From Patescibacteria group bacterium UBA5147 (GTDB lineage Bacteria; Patescibacteriota; Saccharimonadia; UBA4664), in NCBI GenBank assembly GCA_002415345.1, contig DHXV01000001.1, positions 136,305-200,304 on the forward strand: 64,000 bases of DNA, given 5' to 3'. The position numbers and the translations under genes were made by a program. Numbering within the stretch: position 1 is the stretch's first letter; each line of letters begins with the position of its first letter. This document shows, piece after piece, positions 3,962-48,400 of this stretch. The notes beneath the pieces were generated by a model. It worked only from the letters and a program-made list of their open reading frames with translations. It was not told where the DNA came from and ran no database searches.

Positions 3962-4147
3962 TTAGAAACTGCGGCCGAGGTCATCGATTAAGACATAGAG
4001 ACTAATCAGCAAGGCAAACAACCAGCTGCCCCAATGCGGCGACCAGTCAGGCGTATGGCGCAATCGGTGATAGAGCCGCTCTGCCAGCCGCAAGCAGCCG
4101 AAAACCACGATAAAAACCAGTAAGGCCGCAGCGACGGACTTATACAT
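3962..4147 (-). CDS. Small hypothetical membrane protein (61 aa)
   Basis: ORF with two hydrophobic segments; no recognisable domain. Overlaps the end of the downstream RR by 8 nt. Confidence 0.2.
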   Translation of the reverse strand: MYKSVAAALLVFIVVFGCLRLAERLYHRLRHTPDWSPHWGSWLFALLISLYVLIDDLGRSF

Positions 4148-4559
4148 CGGATTTTTTGGCGACCAGCTGCAGCTTGGAATTGATAAGATCCAGGACTTGG
4201 CGAGGGGTCATTTCGGCCTTCACCAGGTAATCGGCCCCAAAGCTGGTGGCGCGTTTGCGGTCGTCCATATTGGATGAGTTCGTCAAGACTATGATGGGCA
4301 TGGTAGAGAAATCATAGCCGTCGTTCTGTAACGCGCCCAGGACTTCCAGGCCGGACAGTTCCGGCATGTTGATATCGAAGATCGCCAGGCTGGGGTGCTC
4401 GGATTTAACCGCCTCAAAGGCGTCGCGGCCGTTGGTTTTAAGAATTACCTTGAACCCGGCGGAGGTCAGCTTAATCTCATACATGCGAGATATGAACGGG
4501 TCGTCTTCGGCAATCAGGATGATCTTGCCGACCCCAAGTTGTGCGTCATTAATTGCCAC
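4140..4559 (-). CDS. Single-domain (CheY-like) response regulator, paralog A
   Basis: Receiver motifs (ILIAEDD...IFDINMP...KAEMTPRQV). Lies directly downstream of HK 4560-6713. Paralogous to 11634-12035 and 28503-28907. Confidence 0.85.
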   Translation of the reverse strand: MAINDAQLGVGKIILIAEDDPFISRMYEIKLTSAGFKVILKTNGRDAFEAVKSEHPSLAIFDINMPELSGLEVLGALQNDGYDFSTMPIIVLTNSSNMDDRKRATSFGADYLVKAEMTPRQVLDLINSKLQLVAKKSDV

Positions 4560-6713
4560 TTATCCCTCTTTCTTGTTGACTGATGCCGGCCGGAGCGGGA
4601 GTTCGAATCCAAAGGTCGAACCTTTTCCGAGCGAGCTGCTAAACAGTATTGTACCACCTTGGTCCTCAACGACGCGCCGGGCCAGGTACAGCCCCAAACC
4701 GGTGCCGTCCGGACGGACCGTCATCGCGTTATCCGCCCTGAAGAACTTGCTGAACAGCTTCTTCTTGGCCTCTTCCGGAACACCAATGCCGGTATCGGTA
4801 ACCCTAAGGCGCACGTACTGGCCAGTTTGGTCAAGCGTTACGGTTACACTTCCTGTTTGCGTGTAATAGATGGCATTGTCGATGAAATTCATTACAACTT
4901 GACGGGTCTTGTTGTCATCGATTTCCGCCAACGGCAGTGGCAGAGCCGGGGGATCAAAAATAAGCTTAATGTTCTTGGCTGAAGCATGGGTTTCAAGCTG
5001 GCGTACCTCGTCCCTGATCATATCGACCATGTCGGTGGGCTTGGTCTGGATAATGAACCGCCCGGCACTCAGCCGGGAGACGTTCAACAGGTCCGAAATC
5101 AGGTTGACCATCCGCTCCGACGACCCAAAAGCGTAACCCGCGAATTCCGTCTGGGTTTTGCTCATGCGTCCGGCGTCCCCTTCCAGCATCATGCTCAGGT
5201 AGCCCTTGATGGTAGTCAGCGGCGTGCGCAACTGGTGAGATGCCATACTAATGAACTCGTCCTTGGCCTGATCAAGTTCCTTAAGATGGCGGTTGGCAAC
5301 GCGCAGACGGCTGGTAGCATGATCCACCCGCGCCTGCAGAGTTTGGTTGAACTCCTGGATTTCCGCGTAGGCCTTGGCATTCAAAATCGCGACCGCCAGC
5401 TGCTTGGCGATTATTTCCAAGACTTCCAGATCCTGACTGGAATAAATATCGCCAGAGAGCTTATCGCCCAGCAATAAGTAGCCGATGAATTCCTCGCGAG
5501 TTCGCAGCATTAATGATACGCGAATGCCATGCTCGTCGAGTAGTTCCTTGCGCTCACCTTCCGGTAGCTCGTCAGCCACAAGAACCGCATGTTTCAACCG
5601 TTGCAGTTCTGGCACCACCATAAGCCGCATTGGCAGCGGACCGTGATGTTCGATGCGATAGACGCGGTCGTGATTGAATACCACAATCTGTCCGAATTGA
5701 ATATTGAGCTGTTGGCAAATATCCGTGATAGACCGCTTAAGAATACGATCCAGGTCCAATTCATACACCAAAATTTTAGAAAAATTGTTGAGGACGATTT
5801 GGGAATTATAGCGATTCTGAAAGAACATTCGCGCTGTGGCATTTTCAAAGAACCGCCGCAGTGGCTGGAATGAGAAAGCTAAAGTTAAAGCGAGCACAAT
5901 ATAAATAATTTGCTGATCTTGTCTGATGGAAGCTCCAGGAAATAGCAAATTTGAAATGCTGAAAATTGCTCCCCCATACAATACGGCCAGACTCACGAGA
6001 AGCAACACGTACGCTACCGACTTTGCTACAATCGAGCGAATATCCAGAAGGTGATTTTTTAAAATCGAATATGCTATCGAGAATTCGGCAATTAGTAAAA
6101 ATAGCGGACTTAGGGGAATAAGAGCTGAGTTTTTAAATAGCAGCGGTATCACCAGGGTTGCAACTAAGGTTGCGCCAAAACTAAGCGTAATCCCATAGTT
6201 AATATAACGCAGCTGAAGTTTTAAGCGTCCAGTGGCGTGACGGTATTTTCGGTACAGAATTATCGCTCCCGAAACCAAACTAATTATTTGGAGGGCTGCA
6301 AATGATGCTATCGCTGGACCAGTCTGGATTGCAGGCTGACCATTGATGATTTCAACTCGTTGGAATATCAGACCGAGGAAACCTAGGAAGATATTTATTA
6401 CAACCCAGATGACAAAGACTACCGAGAGTTTATTTGTCAGGAATTTTTTTCCTGGAAAAGCACTCACAAATAGATACAGCAGCGACCCCGCGGGGATTGC
6501 CGAAACTAGAATGAATTTCGCCCAGAATAAAGCCGTTTCCGGAGTGTTGGAGTGTAAGGCCAGGTAATTGAATACGGGATACAATCCAATGAAGACAATA
6601 AGCAATGCAAAATAAACATTGGTTGCGCTCCGACTATTTTTTGCATAGATAAACGACGCCAGAATTAAACTGACCAATGAGGTTACGACGGCGATAATGA
6701 TGTCTAGAGTCAT
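4560..6713 (-). CDS. Multi-pass membrane sensor histidine kinase (polytopic N-terminus, GAF-like region, HisKA, HATPase_c), paralog A
   Basis: About 10 predicted TM helices in the N-terminal ~300 aa. Has an H-box (ASHQLRTPLTTIKGY) and an ATPase domain (GTGLGLYLARRVVEDQGGTI). Strongly paralogous to 24662-26896. Confidence 0.9.
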   Translation of the reverse strand: MTLDIIIAVVTSLVSLILASFIYAKNSRSATNVYFALLIVFIGLYPVFNYLALHSNTPETALFWAKFILVSAIPAGSLLYLFVSAFPGKKFLTNKLSVVFVIWVVINIFLGFLGLIFQRVEIINGQPAIQTGPAIASFAALQIISLVSGAIILYRKYRHATGRLKLQLRYINYGITLSFGATLVATLVIPLLFKNSALIPLSPLFLLIAEFSIAYSILKNHLLDIRSIVAKSVAYVLLLVSLAVLYGGAIFSISNLLFPGASIRQDQQIIYIVLALTLAFSFQPLRRFFENATARMFFQNRYNSQIVLNNFSKILVYELDLDRILKRSITDICQQLNIQFGQIVVFNHDRVYRIEHHGPLPMRLMVVPELQRLKHAVLVADELPEGERKELLDEHGIRVSLMLRTREEFIGYLLLGDKLSGDIYSSQDLEVLEIIAKQLAVAILNAKAYAEIQEFNQTLQARVDHATSRLRVANRHLKELDQAKDEFISMASHQLRTPLTTIKGYLSMMLEGDAGRMSKTQTEFAGYAFGSSERMVNLISDLLNVSRLSAGRFIIQTKPTDMVDMIRDEVRQLETHASAKNIKLIFDPPALPLPLAEIDDNKTRQVVMNFIDNAIYYTQTGSVTVTLDQTGQYVRLRVTDTGIGVPEEAKKKLFSKFFRADNAMTVRPDGTGLGLYLARRVVEDQGGTILFSSSLGKGSTFGFELPLRPASVNKKEG

Positions 6714-6722
6714 AACGGCCCC

Positions 6723-7703
6723 TTAGATAATGCGACGCGGAGTATGGTATATCTCATTATAAGCATAACCGGTTCTAAAAAAAACTTGTACTTTGCTTGG
6801 AGCGATTTTCATTACTTCTGCGAGCGCTTTGCTGGCAGGAGGGTATTCAACCATGGCTGCCATAATCGTTATTACTAATCCGTCTTTTGTAGCCTGGAGA
6901 GCAATTAATTCGAAAGCTCTTCCCGCAGCAAACCAATCCGCCGGTGAGTCATGCGGAGTAGAGATTACTCCAATTGTCGGCGAGTTCAGAATGAGGTGAC
7001 GGTCTTTTTTGCCACGAATGCTCAATATCCACGGAGCCAGACTGATTAAAGCGGGTATAACACGGGAAAAGATTGGTCGCAAACCTATCACAAACCCAGG
7101 CATCCCATCGGTGCGAGCTGTGTCGTTTGGGCGCATCCAATGAGCCAGTTCGCGGCCAAATCTGGGCGATCTGGCGATATTTCTTGCGGCATCGACATGA
7201 ATCTCAGCAATCTTGGCGATGGTAGATGATGATGATGTAAAGGCAGTTAAATTGGGAGAAAGTTGTTGGAGGGTTGCTAGCTGTTCTTTCGAAATGAGTT
7301 GACTGGAATAGTTAAGTTTATTGGAGTAGCGTTGTTTGATTGCTTGAAACAGACCATCATCCGCCGTTTTTCCGTGTTGAAATGAAATTGTAATTTCGGT
7401 TGCGTCGAGAGTTACATGAGTGTCTAAACCAAAGTAAGCTGCGGCGATTTCGATATTCTTGGCTACGGCACCAAGGCTTATCCAGCCGCCCCGACCGCTT
7501 GGATCCGAGGCCGGCAATGAGAGTTTTGGATTTAGCTTTAGACAGAGTGACCGCTCTTGGACCTCAAACTCCCAAGGCTGGGTATTGTGAACCGAAGGAG
7601 CCAAAATACCGTAACCGATTAAAAATCTAATCTGTTCTTTGATGCTAGCTTTGCGCGGAAAATTGTTTTCGTTAATATCCCAAGCCAAATAATTTGGGGT
7701 CAT
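6723..7703 (-). CDS. Nitroreductase-fold FMN oxidoreductase, Acg-family-like (two nitroreductase-like halves)
   Basis: N-terminal HNTQPWEF motif typical of the nitroreductase/Acg family. The ~326 aa length fits a tandem-lobe architecture. Overlaps the upstream gene by 4 nt. Confidence 0.55.
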   Translation of the reverse strand: MTPNYLAWDINENNFPRKASIKEQIRFLIGYGILAPSVHNTQPWEFEVQERSLCLKLNPKLSLPASDPSGRGGWISLGAVAKNIEIAAAYFGLDTHVTLDATEITISFQHGKTADDGLFQAIKQRYSNKLNYSSQLISKEQLATLQQLSPNLTAFTSSSSTIAKIAEIHVDAARNIARSPRFGRELAHWMRPNDTARTDGMPGFVIGLRPIFSRVIPALISLAPWILSIRGKKDRHLILNSPTIGVISTPHDSPADWFAAGRAFELIALQATKDGLVITIMAAMVEYPPASKALAEVMKIAPSKVQVFFRTGYAYNEIYHTPRRII

Positions 7704-8836
7704 AGCGGACCCTTGCGGATCATTTCGACTATTGCCTCTCGCTGGTCATTGTCAAGTTCCTTAACCTTCATGGTTTCCGTCAGGGACAAAAAATAACGGC
7801 CAGCCGGCAAATCTTGACCCAAGCTAAGGCGACGAATCAGGAACGCGCCAATTCCCCCGTCCATAATAACCGCACTCGCAATTTGAGGCCGACCAACGAG
7901 CGTACGGTTAATTTGTATCAATGAGGCGAGAGCACGGGTTGGAACATACTTTTCACCGACCAGCTCCATAGCGTAACGCTGTTTGGCGCTCTCTGTTATC
8001 GGTTGACTCAAAATATCTTCAGGCAGTGATCCGAGCAGCCCGTGGAAGAGCTCGGACTTGGGGTCAAGATCATACCGCTCGATATCGATAAGAATGTTGT
8101 CGCCAAGACTGGTGAGCATAAGCACTGGTATTCCAAGCTCCCGAGCGGCAATTCGCAAGCGGATTTTCATTTCAAAGTCATCTATTTCATCAAAGACGGC
8201 AACCGGTTTCGGTGTTCCAAGGAACTGCGTCATTGTCGTTCCGGTTAGCCGACCCAGAAACGACAGCTTTAGGTAGGGATTAAGCTCCCACAGCTGTTGA
8301 GCTAACACCTCTTGCTTCGATAAACCTAGTTGGTGAATGCCAGCGCGGAGGCGGTTTAGATTACACGTCTCAAGTACATCATCGTCACTGAGTCGCAACG
8401 TCCTAATGCCATGTTGGGCCAGGCCCATAGCAATCCCGTTGCCCACCGATAATCCGGCAATACTTACCCTTACTTCACCCAACGTGACCTGTTCATCCGC
8501 AGTGACTAGATTCTGATTGCGGTTGGAGCGGAGGCGCTCAAAATCATCCTGCGCAACCATATGAATCAATTGACCGCTCCAAGGCAAATAGACCCAATTA
8601 CCAACCAAATCAGGTTGGTCGCCGAGCCTCTGGGCCACAAACGCCTTCTGTTGCTCTAGAAAATCTGGTTCCCGGAGCTGCTCAGGATTAAGAATTTCAA
8701 ACAGCTCAGCCACCTGACTGGCAATAATGTCACGTTGCTTCCAGACCGGCTTATCCTGTCGAAGTTTTTCGAGGTCCATTTGGCCATACGAACCCGCTGT
8801 TAGGATTAGCGGTGTTGGGATCATTTCTTGATCCAC
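7700..8836 (-). CDS. E1-like (ThiF/MoeB/MccB-type) adenylyltransferase-fold protein with ~120 aa N-terminal extension
   Basis: Rossmann GxGxxG (IAGLSVGNGIAMGLAQHGI) followed by a DDDVLETCNLNRL motif typical of E1/ThiF; N- and C-terminal extensions. Confidence 0.6.
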   Translation of the reverse strand: MDQEMIPTPLILTAGSYGQMDLEKLRQDKPVWKQRDIIASQVAELFEILNPEQLREPDFLEQQKAFVAQRLGDQPDLVGNWVYLPWSGQLIHMVAQDDFERLRSNRNQNLVTADEQVTLGEVRVSIAGLSVGNGIAMGLAQHGIRTLRLSDDDVLETCNLNRLRAGIHQLGLSKQEVLAQQLWELNPYLKLSFLGRLTGTTMTQFLGTPKPVAVFDEIDDFEMKIRLRIAARELGIPVLMLTSLGDNILIDIERYDLDPKSELFHGLLGSLPEDILSQPITESAKQRYAMELVGEKYVPTRALASLIQINRTLVGRPQIASAVIMDGGIGAFLIRRLSLGQDLPAGRYFLSLTETMKVKELDNDQREAIVEMIRKGPL

Positions 8837-10350
8837 TTCTGCTTCGTCCCCGGCATAAAGTGAGTTACATGTTCATAGTCCCAAAATACCAACTTCGGGC
8901 GAATCTTGTCGCCGTACTCTTCGTATGTACTACGGAATTCGGAATTATCGTGTAGCAATCGAGCCATGACGGCCTCCATCAGCCTGGCCGAAAACTCCGG
9001 AGTATTTTCGGTTTCGGGTTTGAGCTCAAAATTAATTATTAATTTCTGGCGGGCTTTGGTATCGAAATCAACGGTCATGGTGAACTTGCCTGTTAGCTCA
9101 TGGGCGAAGGTGTCGGCGGAAACAACGTGCCGAATTGTCTCAGGGTAAACTTGAAACGCATAGAATGAGACCGAAAAGTCGCTTCGCTCATAGACGTACA
9201 CAAAGGGCAGGTTCCAAATGGTTTCAATTCCTGCTTCCTCGGCCATAGTCCGCAAGTCGAGCCCGTTATCGGAAAACTTCTGCTCCATCTGCGCCAACGT
9301 CACGATGCCGCCATGGTCTTTGAGGTCGTAGCGAATCAGCGGAATACCGCTTGGGGCCGAACAAAAGAGGTTTTGTCCGTCGGCTTCAAAGAAAAATTGC
9401 TCGGGTATGTATTGTGCTAAGGTGGGAAGCTTGGTTGCCTGTCCGAAAATATCCTGATAAAGTTTGGGATTTGTAAGCGCAATTCGACGAATCAGGATGG
9501 CTACAGGAGTTTCGTGGGCCATCGTACCTAAGTCGACCGTGCCATAATGGTTAAGGGTACTCGTCAGAGGGTCATCGATACCGGTCTTGGCGCAAATATA
9601 GTTTCGAAATTCTTCATTAAACCCCTCAGCCGAAAAGACAAAGCCGAGCTTGTAGTCTTTCCAGTTCAGACCAGCGCGGATGCCATCATCGATAATATCT
9701 TTTAAAAATGGCGCATACGAGCCAATAATCACCTGGTCATAATCGTGCCCCAAGTTCTGGACCGCTTTAATGACTTCGGCTTTGTTAATTCCGGGGGTAA
9801 TAATACTAAGGTCATAATTACCTCGCTCCCCCACCCGTCGAATAGCTTCATAGGTAAAGAGGCCACCAATCCATGCCCCCATAGGAAAAGCGACAATATA
9901 GAGCGTGCTTCGCTCATGAATCTTGAAATTATTTCTTAGGTACAGTTCGGCCGAAAGCGCGTATTGATCGTCTTGGACGCTCGTTCGAGGGAAATAGAAC
10001 GGCTCACCAGTCGATCCTGAAGTCGTGGAAATAATCCAACTATGCCCATTTAAACTCCCGCCCCAAACCATCTGGGCTCGGGTAAATCGTCGCAAATACG
10101 AATCCTTATCTAGCAGCGGGAAGTCGGCTAGCGCTTTTTTACTGACCTCAAGAAGATTCAGGCCTGCCTCTTGAAGAATAATTTTATAGGCAGGAACACT
10201 GATACTCATTGCAATAGCCTGATTCAGTGCGCGTCGATAGCCACGCTCAATCCATTCAGCCTCAGGAACCTGAACTAAAAGAGATTCAAGAGCAACCGGA
10301 TTTATCTCTTCGAGGGCTACTTCGGTATCTACTGCGTTATTAGCTATCAT
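8821..10350 (-). CDS. Phenylacetate-CoA ligase / F390-synthetase (CapK) family adenylate-forming enzyme
   Basis: AMP-binding core motif TSGSTGEPF; 509 aa; overlaps the downstream E1-like gene by 16 nt. Confidence 0.65.
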   Translation of the reverse strand: MIANNAVDTEVALEEINPVALESLLVQVPEAEWIERGYRRALNQAIAMSISVPAYKIILQEAGLNLLEVSKKALADFPLLDKDSYLRRFTRAQMVWGGSLNGHSWIISTTSGSTGEPFYFPRTSVQDDQYALSAELYLRNNFKIHERSTLYIVAFPMGAWIGGLFTYEAIRRVGERGNYDLSIITPGINKAEVIKAVQNLGHDYDQVIIGSYAPFLKDIIDDGIRAGLNWKDYKLGFVFSAEGFNEEFRNYICAKTGIDDPLTSTLNHYGTVDLGTMAHETPVAILIRRIALTNPKLYQDIFGQATKLPTLAQYIPEQFFFEADGQNLFCSAPSGIPLIRYDLKDHGGIVTLAQMEQKFSDNGLDLRTMAEEAGIETIWNLPFVYVYERSDFSVSFYAFQVYPETIRHVVSADTFAHELTGKFTMTVDFDTKARQKLIINFELKPETENTPEFSARLMEAVMARLLHDNSEFRSTYEEYGDKIRPKLVFWDYEHVTHFMPGTKQKWIKK

Positions 10351-10399
10351 ATTAGCATTAGCGTATTATAAAAATACCCTAAAAACCAGAGTAGCAACT

Positions 10400-11569
10400 A
10401 TGAACAAACATATCATTGCGCAACGAATGAACCAATTCGACTCTACCCATCTAAGCCGTGCTTTTGCGCGGGCCGCTGCGATGACCAACCCGATCGATCT
10501 AAGTATCGGCTTTCCCGAAGACGATACGCCCGGCATAATCAAGAAAGCCGGTATCAAGGCTATCCAAAATAATAAGACCCGTTATACGCCACCAAATGGC
10601 ACGCTAGCTTTACGCTCGGCCCTGGCTGCCAAGCTTGAACTAATGAACGGCATCGCAGCCACACCGGAAACCGTATCGGTTACACCTGGAGCTACGACGG
10701 GTATTCTGTTGGCCTACCTGGCTTTACTCAATCCAGGTGATGAAATCTTACTGCCGGACCCGTATTTTCCACCGTACCGTGACATCGCCACTATGCTCGG
10801 GGCTGTTCCGGTACTCATTGATACCTTTCCGGACTTCCAACTAACTGCCCGGCGCATTGAACCGCTAATTACCGAAAATACTCGTGTCCTTGTGATAAAT
10901 ACTCCCAATAACCCATCGGGCGCCGTCTATCCGGAGATAGAACTGCGACGGATAGCTCGACTCGCCAGGAAGCACAATATTACAATTATTGCCGACGAGA
11001 TTTATGAGCATTTCGCTTACGATATTCCCCACTTCAGTATCGGGAGTATTTATCATCAAACCTTGACGTTGAACGGATTTTCAAAAGCCTATGCCATGAC
11101 AGGTTGGAGGCTTGGCTATATGGCTGGTCCGCTGGCGATTATTGCAGCCATCAACCAGCTTCAGCAATATATCGTTTTCTCATCGTCATCGATTGCCCAA
11201 GAGGCTGGTGTCGCAGCTTTGCGCTTTGATCCTAGTAAACTAACTGACAAGTACCGGCGCAAGCGGGACCTAGTCCGAGAGTACCTAGCCGATTCGTATC
11301 ATTTAGCCGGCAGCCAGGGGGCCTTTTACGCTTTTATACCGGTGCCGACAGGTCACAACGATATCAGTTTCGCTCGCGCCGCCGTCGAGAAGAACGTGAT
11401 AATCCTTCCATCGAGAGCCTTTTCCATGCATACCGACTACGTGCGCATCGCCTTTGCAACTGATCGGTCAAAATTGGAACGGGGACTCAAAATAATGCGC
11501 GAGTTAGCTACAGACAGCTTGGTGGCAACGCCAATAATAAACGGAGCGGTAGCGGAATCACCAAATTAA
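10400..11569 (+). CDS. PLP-dependent aminotransferase, class I (aspartate/aromatic type)
   Basis: Motifs NPSGAVY and SFSKAYAMTGWRLGY (Lys-containing PLP site); 389 aa. Divergent from the 8821-10350 operon, 49 nt apart. Confidence 0.9.
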   Translation: MNKHIIAQRMNQFDSTHLSRAFARAAAMTNPIDLSIGFPEDDTPGIIKKAGIKAIQNNKTRYTPPNGTLALRSALAAKLELMNGIAATPETVSVTPGATTGILLAYLALLNPGDEILLPDPYFPPYRDIATMLGAVPVLIDTFPDFQLTARRIEPLITENTRVLVINTPNNPSGAVYPEIELRRIARLARKHNITIIADEIYEHFAYDIPHFSIGSIYHQTLTLNGFSKAYAMTGWRLGYMAGPLAIIAAINQLQQYIVFSSSSIAQEAGVAALRFDPSKLTDKYRRKRDLVREYLADSYHLAGSQGAFYAFIPVPTGHNDISFARAAVEKNVIILPSRAFSMHTDYVRIAFATDRSKLERGLKIMRELATDSLVATPIINGAVAESPN

Positions 11570-11633
11570 TATTAGAGTCACCCTCACCGGTTGACAGATT
11601 GAAACTTCTCAGCGAACAGGATACATTATTAGC

Positions 11634-12035
11634 ATGAGTACTAAAGCCAAAGTTGCGATAATTGAAGACGACATTGCGATCGTCCAGATGTACCGGATTA
11701 AGTTTGAGAGTGAAGGTTATAACGTTGAGACCGCCGGCGACGGCATAACAGGTCTTGAATTAATTGAATCATTTTCGCCCGATATTATTTTGCTCGATCT
11801 GATGATGCCTAACATGGACGGCTTGGCCATGCTCCAACGTCTCCGCGGCACCACCGAAGGCAAAAAAGCCCGCGTTGTCGTGCTCACCAATATGGGCGAC
11901 ACCGAGACGGCCACCAAAGTTTACAAAATGGCGGCCGATGATTACATCGTTAAAGCCGAGATGACGCCTAAGCAAGTTGCCGAGCGCGTCAGGCTGCTGC
12001 TGGCCAAGAAGCCGGAAGAGCTGGCCGGCGCCTAA
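11634..12035 (+). CDS. Single-domain response regulator, paralog B (orphan)
   Basis: Receiver motifs (VAIIEDD...ILLDLMMP...KAEMTPKQV); no kinase is adjacent. Confidence 0.85.
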   Translation: MSTKAKVAIIEDDIAIVQMYRIKFESEGYNVETAGDGITGLELIESFSPDIILLDLMMPNMDGLAMLQRLRGTTEGKKARVVVLTNMGDTETATKVYKMAADDYIVKAEMTPKQVAERVRLLLAKKPEELAGA

Positions 12036-36082: not shown

Positions 36083-36159
36083 TGGAGGGCCATCTGGGAT
36101 TCGAACCCAGGACACGGGGATTAAGAGTCCCCTGCTCTAACCAACTGAGCTAATGGCCC
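36083..36159 (-). tRNA. tRNA-Lys (anticodon CTT), CCA encoded
   Basis: Manual cloverleaf: acceptor GGGCCAT/ATGGCCC, D-arm GCTC-AGTTGGTTA-GAGC, anticodon arm GGGGA-CTCTTAA-TCCCC, T-arm CTGGG-TTCGAAT-CCCAG. Confidence 0.9.
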
Positions 36160-36229
36160 GAAATGTGAAACAGTCATAATCCTACCCGAAACAGCACTTT
36201 TAGGCAAGAACTATGAGGGGAATAATTAC

Positions 36230-36305
36230 TGGTGCGCCCGGAGGGACTTGAACCCCCGACACCTTGGTTCGAAGCCAAGTGCTCTATCCACTGAGCTACG
36301 AGCGC
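36230..36305 (-). tRNA. tRNA-Arg (anticodon TCG), CCA encoded
   Basis: Acceptor GCGCTCG/CGGGCGC, anticodon arm CTTGG-CTTCGAA-CCAAG, T-loop TTCAAGT. Confidence 0.85.
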
Positions 36306-38010: not shown

Positions 38011-38086
38011 TGGTGCGCCTGAAGGGATTCGAACCCCCGACACCCAGTACCGGAAACTGGTGCTCTATCCCCTGAGCTACAGGCGC
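38011..38086 (-). tRNA. tRNA-Arg (anticodon CCG), CCA encoded
   Basis: Acceptor GCGCCTG/CAGGCGC, D-arm GCTC-AGGGGATA-GAGC, anticodon arm CCAGT-TTCCGGT-ACTGG, T-loop TTCGAAT. Confidence 0.85.
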
Positions 38087-47965: not shown

Positions 47966-48043
47966 TGGGGCGAGTGATGGGGCTTGAACCCACGACCTAC
48001 GGTACCACAAACCGTCGCTCTAACCAACTGAGCTACACCCGCC
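47966..48043 (-). tRNA. tRNA-His (anticodon GTG) with extra 5' G(-1), CCA encoded
   Basis: G-1 + acceptor GCGGGTG/CACTCGC, discriminator C, anticodon arm ACGGT-TTGTGGT-ACCGT, T-loop TTCAAGC. Confidence 0.85.
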
Positions 48044-48103
48044 ATGTTGAACCAGTTAAATTTAACCGTTTTGAGGGAAAAAGTCTAGGCTCATGATGAT
48101 TAC

Positions 48104-48180
48104 TGGTGCCCCCGGCAGGGTTCGAACCTGCGACCATTGGCTTAGAAGTCCACTGCTCTATCCAGCTGAGCTACGGGGGC
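48104..48180 (-). tRNA. tRNA, probable Arg (anticodon TCT), with weak anticodon stem
   Basis: Perfect acceptor (GCCCCCG/CGGGGGC), D-arm (GCTC-AGCTGGATA-GAGC) and T-arm (GCAGG-TTCGAAC-CCTGC). Loop CTTCTAA, but the flanking stem GTGGA/GCCAA pairs only 3 bp. Confidence 0.6.
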
Positions 48181-48225
48181 ATGAGGGCATTATACAAGAA
48201 ACGACCCCACTGGGCCGAATTCTAT

Positions 48226-48300
48226 TGGAGCGGGTGAGGGGAATCGAACCCCTATAGCCTGCTTGGAAGGCAGGTACATTAACCGTTATGCTACACCCGC
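48226..48300 (-). tRNA. tRNA-Gly (anticodon TCC), CCA encoded
   Basis: Acceptor GCGGGTG/CACCCGC, anticodon arm CCTGC-CTTCCAA-GCAGG, T-arm AGGGG-TTCGATT-CCCCT. Confidence 0.85.
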
Positions 48301-48324
48301 GTTCTCTTACCTTTACAATTTCAC

Positions 48325-48400
48325 TGGTCGGGGTGAAAGGACTCGAACCTTCGACCTCATGCTCCCAAAGCACGCGCGCTACCAGCTGCGCCACACCCCG
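48325..48400 (-). tRNA. tRNA-Pro (anticodon TGG), CCA encoded
   Basis: Acceptor CGGGGTG/CACCCCG, D-arm GCGC-AGCTGGTA-GCGC, anticodon arm CGTGC-TTTGGGA-GCATG, T-loop TTCGAGT. Confidence 0.85.

Follow-up and report, generated by a model that had tools for sequence, protein, structure and literature searches.

Which pathway is served by three overlapping genes for a CapK/PaaK-like adenylate-forming ligase (LIG), an E1-like protein of the ThiF type (THIF) and an Acg-type flavin mononucleotide (FMN) oxidoreductase (ACG), and by the aminotransferase gene (AT) which diverges from them? This question is raised by a 64,000-nucleotide stretch of DNA (hereafter the window) from Patescibacteria group bacterium UBA5147, a member of the Saccharimonadia (assembly GCA_002415345.1, contig DHXV01000001.1, positions 136,305 to 200,304 of the forward strand). 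A preliminary description, made from the sequence alone, had read these genes as a tailoring cassette for an amino-acid-derived metabolite or a C-terminally modified peptide. Our comparisons of sequences and predicted structures suggest that the cassette encodes a ligase-driven, kinase-coupled variant of the oxazolone/N-acyl-amino-acid pathway, which is only partly explained by known biology and to which we assign a probability of roughly 0.5. A signalling role of the cassette appears possible but doubtful. The following features of the window are involved:

6723–7703, minus strand: ACG, Acg-type FMN oxidoreductase of 326 aa (match to NF047509)
7700–8836, minus strand: THIF, ThiF/E1-like enzyme of 378 aa (ThiF domain plus an N-terminal region of ~105 aa)
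8821–10350, minus strand: LIG, predicted PaaK-fold ANL ligase of 509 aa (assigned by fold and family profile)
10400–11569, plus strand: AT, class Ib aminotransferase of 389 aa (Pfam Aminotran_1_2)
10351–10399, no strand: putative control region between the divergent LIG and AT genes, 49 nt, AT-rich, conserved with the related locus L001
4560–6713, minus strand: sensor histidine kinase of 717 aa with seven-transmembrane (7TM), GAF, HisKA and HATPase domains (Pfam)
4140–4559, minus strand: REC1, stand-alone CheY-like receiver (Pfam Response_reg, 73 bits)
3962–4147, minus strand: hydrophobic membrane open reading frame (ORF) of 61 aa (same position in relatives)
11634–12035, plus strand: REC2, stand-alone receiver 3′ of AT (Pfam Response_reg, 84 bits)

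A first part of the answer is given by THIF and ACG. THIF carries a Pfam ThiF domain at residues 107–239, and its best family is 'Rv1355c family protein' with 274 bits over profile positions 14–344 of 722, the next ThiF family reaching 58 bits. This match covers the N-terminal extension of THIF as well. As ACG matches positions 370–666 of the same profile, the two proteins can be regarded as a split Rv1355c/TrzS. Indeed, at least six loci of the Candidate Phyla Radiation (CPR) encode ThiF-Acg fusions of 722–761 aa, which follow the Rv1355c profile from end to end (positions 11–646) with 377–381 bits, well above other families. Rv1355c/TrzS (OxzB) is a ThiF-cyclase/flavin-oxidase that converts N-acyl amino acids to 4-arylidene oxazolones (JBC 2023, 2025). 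In Mycobacterium tuberculosis, the acyl-CoA N-acyltransferase TrzA provides the TrzS substrate N-acyl-tryptophan, from which N-acyl tryptazolones are formed by an ATP-dependent cyclisation followed by an O2-dependent desaturation (PMC12856293). TyzACB work in the same way (PMC10404671), as do OxzAB of Pseudoalteromonas rubra (bioRxiv 10.1101/2020.06.11.147165), and TrzS, OxzB and TyzBC have been identified as oxazolone synthetases by experiment. A ThiF-like protein together with a nitroreductase-fold oxidase thus constitutes an oxazolone synthetase module described between 2021 and 2025, and the earlier statement that the gene set matches no textbook pathway is outdated.

The ATP site of THIF (G128-x-S-x-G132, D153, N159-x-N-R162, K174 and D219) is invariant in 35 homologs. 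The catalytic residues of TrzS are D217, an Asp needed for cyclase activity, R540 and Q651; with E. coli ThiF taken as a proxy for TrzS D217, D219 of THIF aligns with the Asp in the 'LDCTDN' motif of E. coli ThiF. THIF is proposed to be an ATP-dependent cyclase and the counterpart of the N-terminal half of TrzS/OxzB or of TyzB. ACG, for which an Acg-type and a SagB-type assignment had been weighed, is of the Acg type: it scores 215.6 bits against NF047509 (Acg family, cutoff 199), matches MsAcg (PDB 2YMV), the second proxy for TrzS, with E = 8e-9 and shares with it the motif APSxHNTQPW, which is conserved in at least 93% of 47 family members. We propose that ACG is a flavin-dependent oxidase of the nitroreductase superfamily which acts as a C-alpha/C-beta desaturase. 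According to a 2025 review, no ThiF-like enzyme other than the oxazolone-forming one is known to have a small molecule as its substrate (PMC12596934). In the structure comparison, the THIF core is matched best by AclA from Tenacibaculum discolor (PDB 9egb), whose 2025 structure bears the description 'in complex with substrate'; AclA may be another small-molecule ThiF-like enzyme of relevance to the mechanism.

A second part of the answer concerns LIG, for which no match was obtained among Pfam, NCBIfam or PDB sequences, even at E = 10. Its AlphaFold2 model (pLDDT 85, pTM 0.83) retrieved PaaK1 with Foldseek (E = 3e-22, TM 0.74–0.76), followed by BT_0428, HCL and ClxA, a structural neighbour whose structure has a bound aryl-acid adenylate. 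A profile of the LIG family found PaaK-type chains in the PDB at E = 8e-6 over the N-terminal 100 residues. As the sequence searches were empty, the kinship with PaaK is visible only via the structure and the family profile; the CapK/PaaK-like assignment given earlier is thus borne out by the fold and, weakly, by the profile. The core motifs A3, A5, A7, A8 and A10 are all present, and T110-S-G-S-T-G-x-P117, Y269-G-T-V-D273, R340-Y-D-L-x-D345, E388-R-x-D391 and K503 are invariant ANL motifs. Judged by its model, LIG is a predicted PaaK-type ANL adenylate-forming enzyme and belongs to an unannotated and mostly CPR family with at least 2587 homologs, the best matches being 52–99% identical and the median pairwise identity across CPR classes being 53%. 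The earlier view that a nitroreductase-fold flavoenzyme is combined with two enzymes that activate carboxylates with ATP, one of them an ANL ligase and the other E1-like, is upheld.

Thirdly, the genes form a conserved set. A pattern scan for LIG matched 353 GTDB species representatives, and the 80 best matches, which are Patescibacteria of many classes or metagenome-assembled genomes (MAGs) with doubtful labels, were used for the comparison of loci. Conservation was counted in the 49 loci with enough flank, which come from diverse CPR classes. A ThiF gene is adjacent to LIG in all of them (49/49), the 7TM kinase in 48/49 and an Acg gene in 33–38/49. An aminotransferase is present in 25/49 loci and an ELFV dehydrogenase in 22/49; both together were found in none (0/49) and neither of them in 2/49. 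The gene order is shuffled across lineages and the set is retained, a recurrence far beyond chance which answers the question of neighbourhood conservation left by the preliminary description. The cassette is widespread in CPR/Patescibacteria. AT, earlier named a class I aminotransferase, matches Pfam Aminotran_1_2 with 208 bits and aspartate, prephenate and aromatic aminotransferases of the PDB with 219–230 bits; it belongs to the set and is exchanged one-for-one in other lineages for a Leu/Trp-dehydrogenase-like ELFV protein (LeuDH 229 bits, TrpDH 205 bits, ScyB model 270 bits). The view of a tailoring cassette for an amino-acid-derived small molecule agrees with this conserved, co-inherited set.

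Further links are provided by gene fusions. In locus L026 (3024–5693) LIG and ThiF are naturally fused to a protein of 889 aa, which is a Rosetta-stone link for consecutive steps. An alpha/beta-hydrolase resembling enol-lactonases and meta-cleavage product (MCP) hydrolases is an accessory in 21 of the 80 loci and absent from the window: it is fused to Acg in seven loci (L012, L029, L043, L048, L077, L079, L082) and to ThiF in L074, and stands alone in ~12. This hydrolase could open an oxazolone (azlactone) ring. No GNAT, FeeM-like or OxzA-type acyltransferase was found in the LIG-type loci.

Two observations on individual genomes may be added. A CPR-type cassette occurs in MAGs labelled 'uncultured Gammaproteobacteria' (L018–L020, L022, L024, L035, L038, L047, L049, L058, L083, L084), one of which is a complete chromosome of 938 kb (OZ246401.1); these labels look wrong. 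In L031, a complete Saccharibacteria genome of 1.23 Mb (CP064992.1), the AT and kinase genes are broken into two ORFs apiece and both ThiF and Acg are shortened, so the cassette may be degraded, with pseudogenisation in that lineage.

From the observed gene structure, folds, family relationships, conservation, fusions and mutually exclusive partners, and from the alternative cassettes and the mosaic described below, we infer every chemical step, the substrates and the sensing relationship of the following scheme. The enzymatic core of a nine-gene module (window 3962–12035) is formed by the three overlapping genes. LIG would adenylate a carboxylic acid and couple it to the amine of an amino acid with a hydrophobic or aromatic side chain, which would yield an N-acyl amino acid without acyl-CoA; LIG would thereby replace the acyl-CoA N-acyltransferase OxzA/TyzA/TrzA. 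Candidate acyl donors are a scavenged fatty or organic acid and a 2-oxo acid provided by AT or the ELFV dehydrogenase. THIF would then adenylate the carboxylate of the N-acyl amino acid, with the amide oxygen closing a 5(4H)-oxazolone ring, and ACG would desaturate C-alpha/C-beta with O2 to a 4-alkylidene or 4-arylidene oxazolone. The alpha/beta-hydrolase of some lineages may open the ring to an N-acyl dehydroamino acid. AT or the Leu/Trp-type dehydrogenase presumably interconverts amino acid and 2-oxo acid, be it for supply, for recycling or for a 2-oxo acid as acyl donor. The sensor of the co-transcribed 7TM-GAF kinase, which is accompanied by two receivers, would most likely respond to the product or to a lipid-like molecule related to it, in the manner of synthase/receptor signalling pairs. 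A primary-amide cycle, in which acylation and oxidation would be followed by hydrolysis to a 2-oxo acid and AT or ELFV would restore the amino group, was considered separately and judged energetically implausible.

The layout of the locus agrees in part with what had been described before. The four ORFs have exactly the coordinates given earlier, and the overlaps of 4 nt (7700–7703) and 16 nt (8821–8836) and the divergent gap of 49 nt were likewise exact. The trio and AT were correctly recognised; missed were the kinase, the two receivers, the 61-aa ORF and the CPR-wide distribution. The minus-strand unit goes on past 6723 with 9 nt to the kinase gene, followed by the abutting REC1 gene and the 61-aa ORF, which overlaps REC1 by 8 nt. 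The whole unit extends over window 3962–12035, and its minus-strand genes are at most 9 nt apart or overlap. The 16-nt overlap of THIF and LIG hinges on a GTG start at 8836, and an alternative public gene call starts at Met20 (P0121, 359 aa). As residues 1–20 hold the motif P-x-I-L-x-x-G-x-Y, which is conserved across 35 homologs, we favour the long start.

The region between LIG and AT (10351–10399) is nearly 100% conserved with L001, the flanking proteins being 85% identical. It contains TATAAT and three GCTAAT repeats which run into the LIG start codon, and may serve as a common operator or as a promoter with a short leader. A scan for consensus promoters and terminators gave matches at chance level. 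Beyond a polysaccharide deacetylase gene, at window ~1104–2793 on the minus strand, a second, ordinary two-component system is found, with an OmpR-type response regulator that has a DNA-binding domain and a HisKA kinase; it is seen in L087 as 6921–8154. This system could provide the transcriptional output absent from the stand-alone receivers. Elsewhere in the window, seven tRNA genes lie on the minus strand in three clusters (36086–36305, 38014–38086 and 47969–48400).

The kinase combines HisKA_7TM (53 bits), GAF, HisKA and HATPase_c domains (Pfam). REC1, which has no output domain, is conserved 3′ of the kinase, and REC2 is conserved beside AT or ELFV in most loci. The 61-aa ORF, for which no family match was found, is 63% identical to its counterpart in L005 and 33% identical to that in L001, at the same position, and gene calls for the counterpart exist in L087, L089 and L090. 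As it also occurs in loci without the ligase cassette, it is part of the kinase-receiver chassis.

Loci gathered from the sensor region of the kinase share a common syntenic slot X (FolD ... REC ← X → kinase → REC → small ORF/deacetylase). In L093, L094, L099, L103, L117 and L119 the slot holds a ligase-type cassette. In L090, L091, L098, L102 and L126 it holds a protein of ~245 aa that resembles FeeM, Acetyltransf_5 and TIGR03694 and has weak similarity to synthases of N-acyl-homoserine lactones (AHL); E-values go down to 1e-11, the gathering cutoff of Acetyltransf_5 is exceeded, and these proteins are mostly missed by Pfam. TIGR03694, the 'PEP-CTERM/exosortase system-associated acyltransferase' of NCBI, is taken by us to be the same family as the FeeM-like enzymes that make N-acyl amino acids. 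The FeeM-like slot usually comes with a PlsC-like acyltransferase and S-adenosylmethionine (SAM) methyltransferases, and in L091 also with a fatty-acid desaturase. In L095 and L096 a pyridoxal phosphate (PLP)-dependent decarboxylase of the Orn/Arg type is found together with a methyltransferase and a 394-aa protein of no known family, and in L123 a pyruvoyl histidine decarboxylase lies directly upstream of the kinase; these decarboxylase sets are candidates for further amine-type signal cassettes. Other kinase loci have proteins of no recognised type in the slot. A 'variable synthase slot' beside a conserved kinase and receiver is thus observed. According to 2011 work, in the form in which PMC4897644 cites it, FeeM-like enzymes are a class making N-acyl amino acids. 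As amino acids are derivatised by every alternative set, and one class of them yields N-acyl amino acids directly, the slot supports the chemistry proposed for the LIG cassette.

The cassette and the kinase are, moreover, mosaic. The GC content at third codon positions (GC3) is 0.61–0.79 in the flanking genes, 0.69 in REC1, 0.68 in the kinase transmitter, 0.54 in the GAF domain and 0.42 in both the 7TM domain and Acg, with ThiF, ligase and AT at 0.51–0.52. A sharp GC3 break hence lies within the kinase gene, parallel to a domain-level mosaic in sequence similarity. Compared with the syntenic Saccharimonadales relatives L007–L009, the window is 79–82% identical in the transmitter, 61–64% in GAF, 60–64% in the ligase and 62–65% in AT; identity to the near relatives is about 27–41% for the 7TM domain and 42–47% for ThiF. 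For the distant ELFV-type loci L018, L021 and L049 it is 53–57% for the 7TM domain, up to 51% for ThiF and 34–37% for the transmitter. THIF, ACG and the 7TM domain thus form a mosaic tract with low GC3. As further GC dips are present at 30–34 kb and 44–48 kb of the window, the cassette is not the only part of the window with a deviating composition.

Across 43 loci, the similarity of the 7TM domain correlates with that of ThiF (r = 0.57) more than with that of its own transmitter (r = 0.28), and across 32 loci also with that of Acg (r = 0.66). With transmitter and ligase controlled, a Pearson partial Mantel test gave r = 0.52–0.56 (p ≤ 0.0005), a value partly confounded by physical adjacency, and the correlation of transmitter and ThiF after control was r = 0.02. 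ThiF lies away from the kinase in only four loci, and pairs with these have a partial r of 0.54. The median pairwise identities (7TM 0.30, GAF 0.31 and ThiF 0.37 versus transmitter 0.52 and ligase 0.53) fit a conserved chassis with hypervariable parts.

Several observations weigh against an oxazolone pathway coupled to this kinase. On NF005901, the Rv1355c equivalog model with a cutoff of 476 bits, the split pair of the window reaches 274 + 85 bits and even the fused CPR proteins, with their 377–381 bits, stay below; on this ground the CPR ThiF-Acg proteins are relatives and not equivalogs. ACG scores higher on the Acg/Rv3131 model than on the C-terminal half of TrzS, Acg-type proteins are without a proven catalytic role, and ACG is missing in about 10 of the 49 loci. 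As its PaaK relatives are mostly CoA ligases, amide formation by LIG is an assumption. The receivers have neither an output nor a DNA-binding domain, and the idea that the kinase is a dedicated partner of the cassette was rejected, the kinase family also occurring without it. Finally, the co-variation of the 7TM domain with the enzymes is partly confounded by adjacency, and a rank-based test with quadratic controls gave a modest r of 0.18 (p = 0.002).

We tentatively suggest that the oxazolone cassette may belong to a pherotype-like form of CPR signalling, in which a conserved chassis (transmitter, receivers and LIG) would be combined with a hypervariable unit (ThiF, Acg and 7TM) that is exchanged as a block and elsewhere replaced by FeeM/AHL-synthase-like or decarboxylase cassettes, with oxazolones or N-acyl amino acid derivatives as the signals. 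The discoverers of the oxazolones described their physiological role as unresolved and speculated about signalling (PMC12856293; bioRxiv 10.1101/2020.06.11.147165). If true, this idea would give oxazolones and Acg-type proteins a first physiological role and would provide ultrasmall episymbionts with a channel for cell-cell or symbiont-host communication.

Of the other explanations, a role in the envelope survives best, although it, too, has to be called doubtful. Here the cassette would make N-acyl amino acid or oxazolone lipids, and the 7TM kinase would be a membrane-state sensor, as DesK is, which controls adjacent lipid-remodelling genes and is no receptor of the product. Such a role is consistent with the PlsC-type acyltransferases, CMAS-like methyltransferases and the fatty-acid desaturase among the slot alternatives, with the envelope-related genes nearby in the window (polysaccharide deacetylase, OpgC/Acyl_transf_3, LssY_C) and with a kinase family that is not exclusive to the cassette; the known tyrazolones, moreover, are described as lipids (PMC10404671). 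However, a generic membrane-fluidity sensor would not be expected to have a hypervariable 7TM domain that is mosaic with THIF and ACG and not with its own transmitter. Likewise, the decarboxylase-type alternative cassettes consist of non-lipid enzymes, and the receivers are without a DNA-binding output. Because of the mosaic, sensing of the product is favoured over sensing of the membrane state.

Catabolism of aromatic or branched-chain amino acids is improbable. In that case a 2-oxo or aryl acid formed by transamination or deamination would be activated by LIG as a PaaK-like CoA ligase, ThiF and the nitroreductase would have unrelated redox or cofactor roles, and the kinase would be a nutrient sensor. 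The Joint Genome Institute (JGI) labels LIG homologs as phenylacetate-CoA ligase, the LIG fold is closest to PaaK1 and BT_0428, and AT and ELFV are enzymes of a catabolic type. Yet LIG fails all PaaK and AMP-binding sequence models, and none of the loci examined has genes for paa, IOR, a thiolase or another part of a CoA pathway. Furthermore, the ThiF-Acg and LIG-ThiF fusions bind the three enzymes to one pathway, and the ThiF protein is specifically TrzS-like.

Very little speaks for the modification of a peptide, that is, for a ribosomally synthesised and post-translationally modified peptide (RiPP)-like system or C-terminal peptide modification by an MccB/PaaA-type adenylase and a SagB-like dehydrogenase, which the preliminary description had kept as its second option. 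The E1-like protein does have the extra N-terminal domain (~105 aa) on which this option was built. This domain lies, however, inside the Rv1355c/TrzS profile and outside the structural alignments with MccB and PaaA, which cover a core of 220–234 residues only; the best matches in the structure comparison are AclA, ThiF and MoeB, and the MccB-type reading was abandoned. The earlier finding of no YcaO, no precursor-peptide ORF and no transporter holds for the cassette, which lacks a protease as well. A search for short substrate-type ORFs found no free precursor ORF in the cassette, its intergenic gaps being at most 64 nt and its only small conserved ORF encoding the hydrophobic membrane protein, and the oxidase is not of the SagB type. 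Activation of a sulfur carrier or a ubiquitin-like protein, or an E1-based anti-phage system (CBASS Cap2, Bil, 6A-MBL), is barely conceivable, as the generic ThiF/MoeB/E1 and PADLOC E1-E2 matches over the Rossmann region that point to it are set against the weakness of the PADLOC matches (at most 42 bits over ~90 residues), the lack of any conserved Cys or CxxC in THIF across 35 homologs, the lack of ThiS/MoaD/Ubl, E2 and JAB genes in any locus and the lack of PADLOC matches for the other cassette proteins.

If the oxazolone reading is correct, it offers a testable function for the large and highly conserved LIG family, which has no Pfam or NCBIfam model, and it would extend the oxazolone pathway to Patescibacteria, with an acyl-CoA-independent CPR form that suits a minimal metabolism. 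In the library searched, no paper was found in which oxazolones, synthases of N-acyl amino acids or synthases of the AHL type are connected with CPR, and the cassette genes are not mentioned in the Saccharibacteria transposon-sequencing (Tn-seq) paper (Cell 2023) and the perspective (PNAS 2024). As a sensor kinase is co-transcribed with the pathway in nearly all cases, and its sensor domain may co-vary with ThiF and Acg, the hypothesis of oxazolone signalling becomes directly testable. A variable synthase slot beside one kinase family may represent a general route to small-molecule signalling in CPR.

Among known systems, the RiPP adenylases MccB and PaaA resemble THIF in that an N-terminal domain is added to an E1-like core, and differ in that the THIF cassette has no precursor peptide and a context of small-molecule metabolism. 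With the Acg family (M. tuberculosis Acg/Rv2032, Rv3131 and Rv3127; MsAcg), ACG shares the APSxHNTQPW motif and passes the NCBIfam subfamily cutoff. The mycobacterial Acg proteins belong to the DosR regulon and are orphans without an assigned reaction, whereas ACG sits in, and is sometimes fused to, a ThiF-type pathway. The cassette thereby offers the first pathway context for these orphan dormancy-regulon proteins. LIG has in common with PaaK1/2, BT_0428, HCL and ClxA the two-domain fold, the N-terminal helical microdomain, the P-loop TSGSTGxP and the C-terminal catalytic Lys. Unlike these PaaK-type ligases, it is ~80 aa longer (12–18% identity), is missed by the Pfam AMP-binding model and the NCBIfam PaaK models and would use an amine acceptor in place of CoA.

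In LuxM/LuxN and CqsA/CqsS a synthase lies beside a polytopic kinase, and in agrB-agrD-agrC the specificity region includes the sensor. The likeness of the cassette to these systems concerns how they work: biosynthesis genes stand directly upstream of a multi-transmembrane histidine kinase, a conserved transmitter and receiver stand beside a hypervariable sensor and hypervariable enzymes, and a mosaic tract runs through both the enzymes and the sensor domain. There is no homology, the receivers of the cassette lack a DNA-binding output, the kinase family is found with other cassettes as well, and secretion and sensing of a product are putative.

The closest comparison is with TrzAS, TyzACB and OxzAB. 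THIF and ACG match both halves of the profile, N-terminal extension included, and CPR fusions have the same 722-aa architecture; the ThiF domain has an intact ATP site, and the oxidase is either adjacent (4-nt overlap) or fused. The oxazolone systems described so far possess a GNAT/AHL-synthase-like acyltransferase and come from Proteobacteria, Actinomycetota or Planctomycetota. In the CPR cassette, a PaaK-fold ANL ligase takes the place of the acyl-CoA N-acyltransferase OxzA/TyzA/TrzA, an aminotransferase or a Leu/Trp-type dehydrogenase is added as a constant partner, and a 7TM histidine kinase with receivers is almost always attached.

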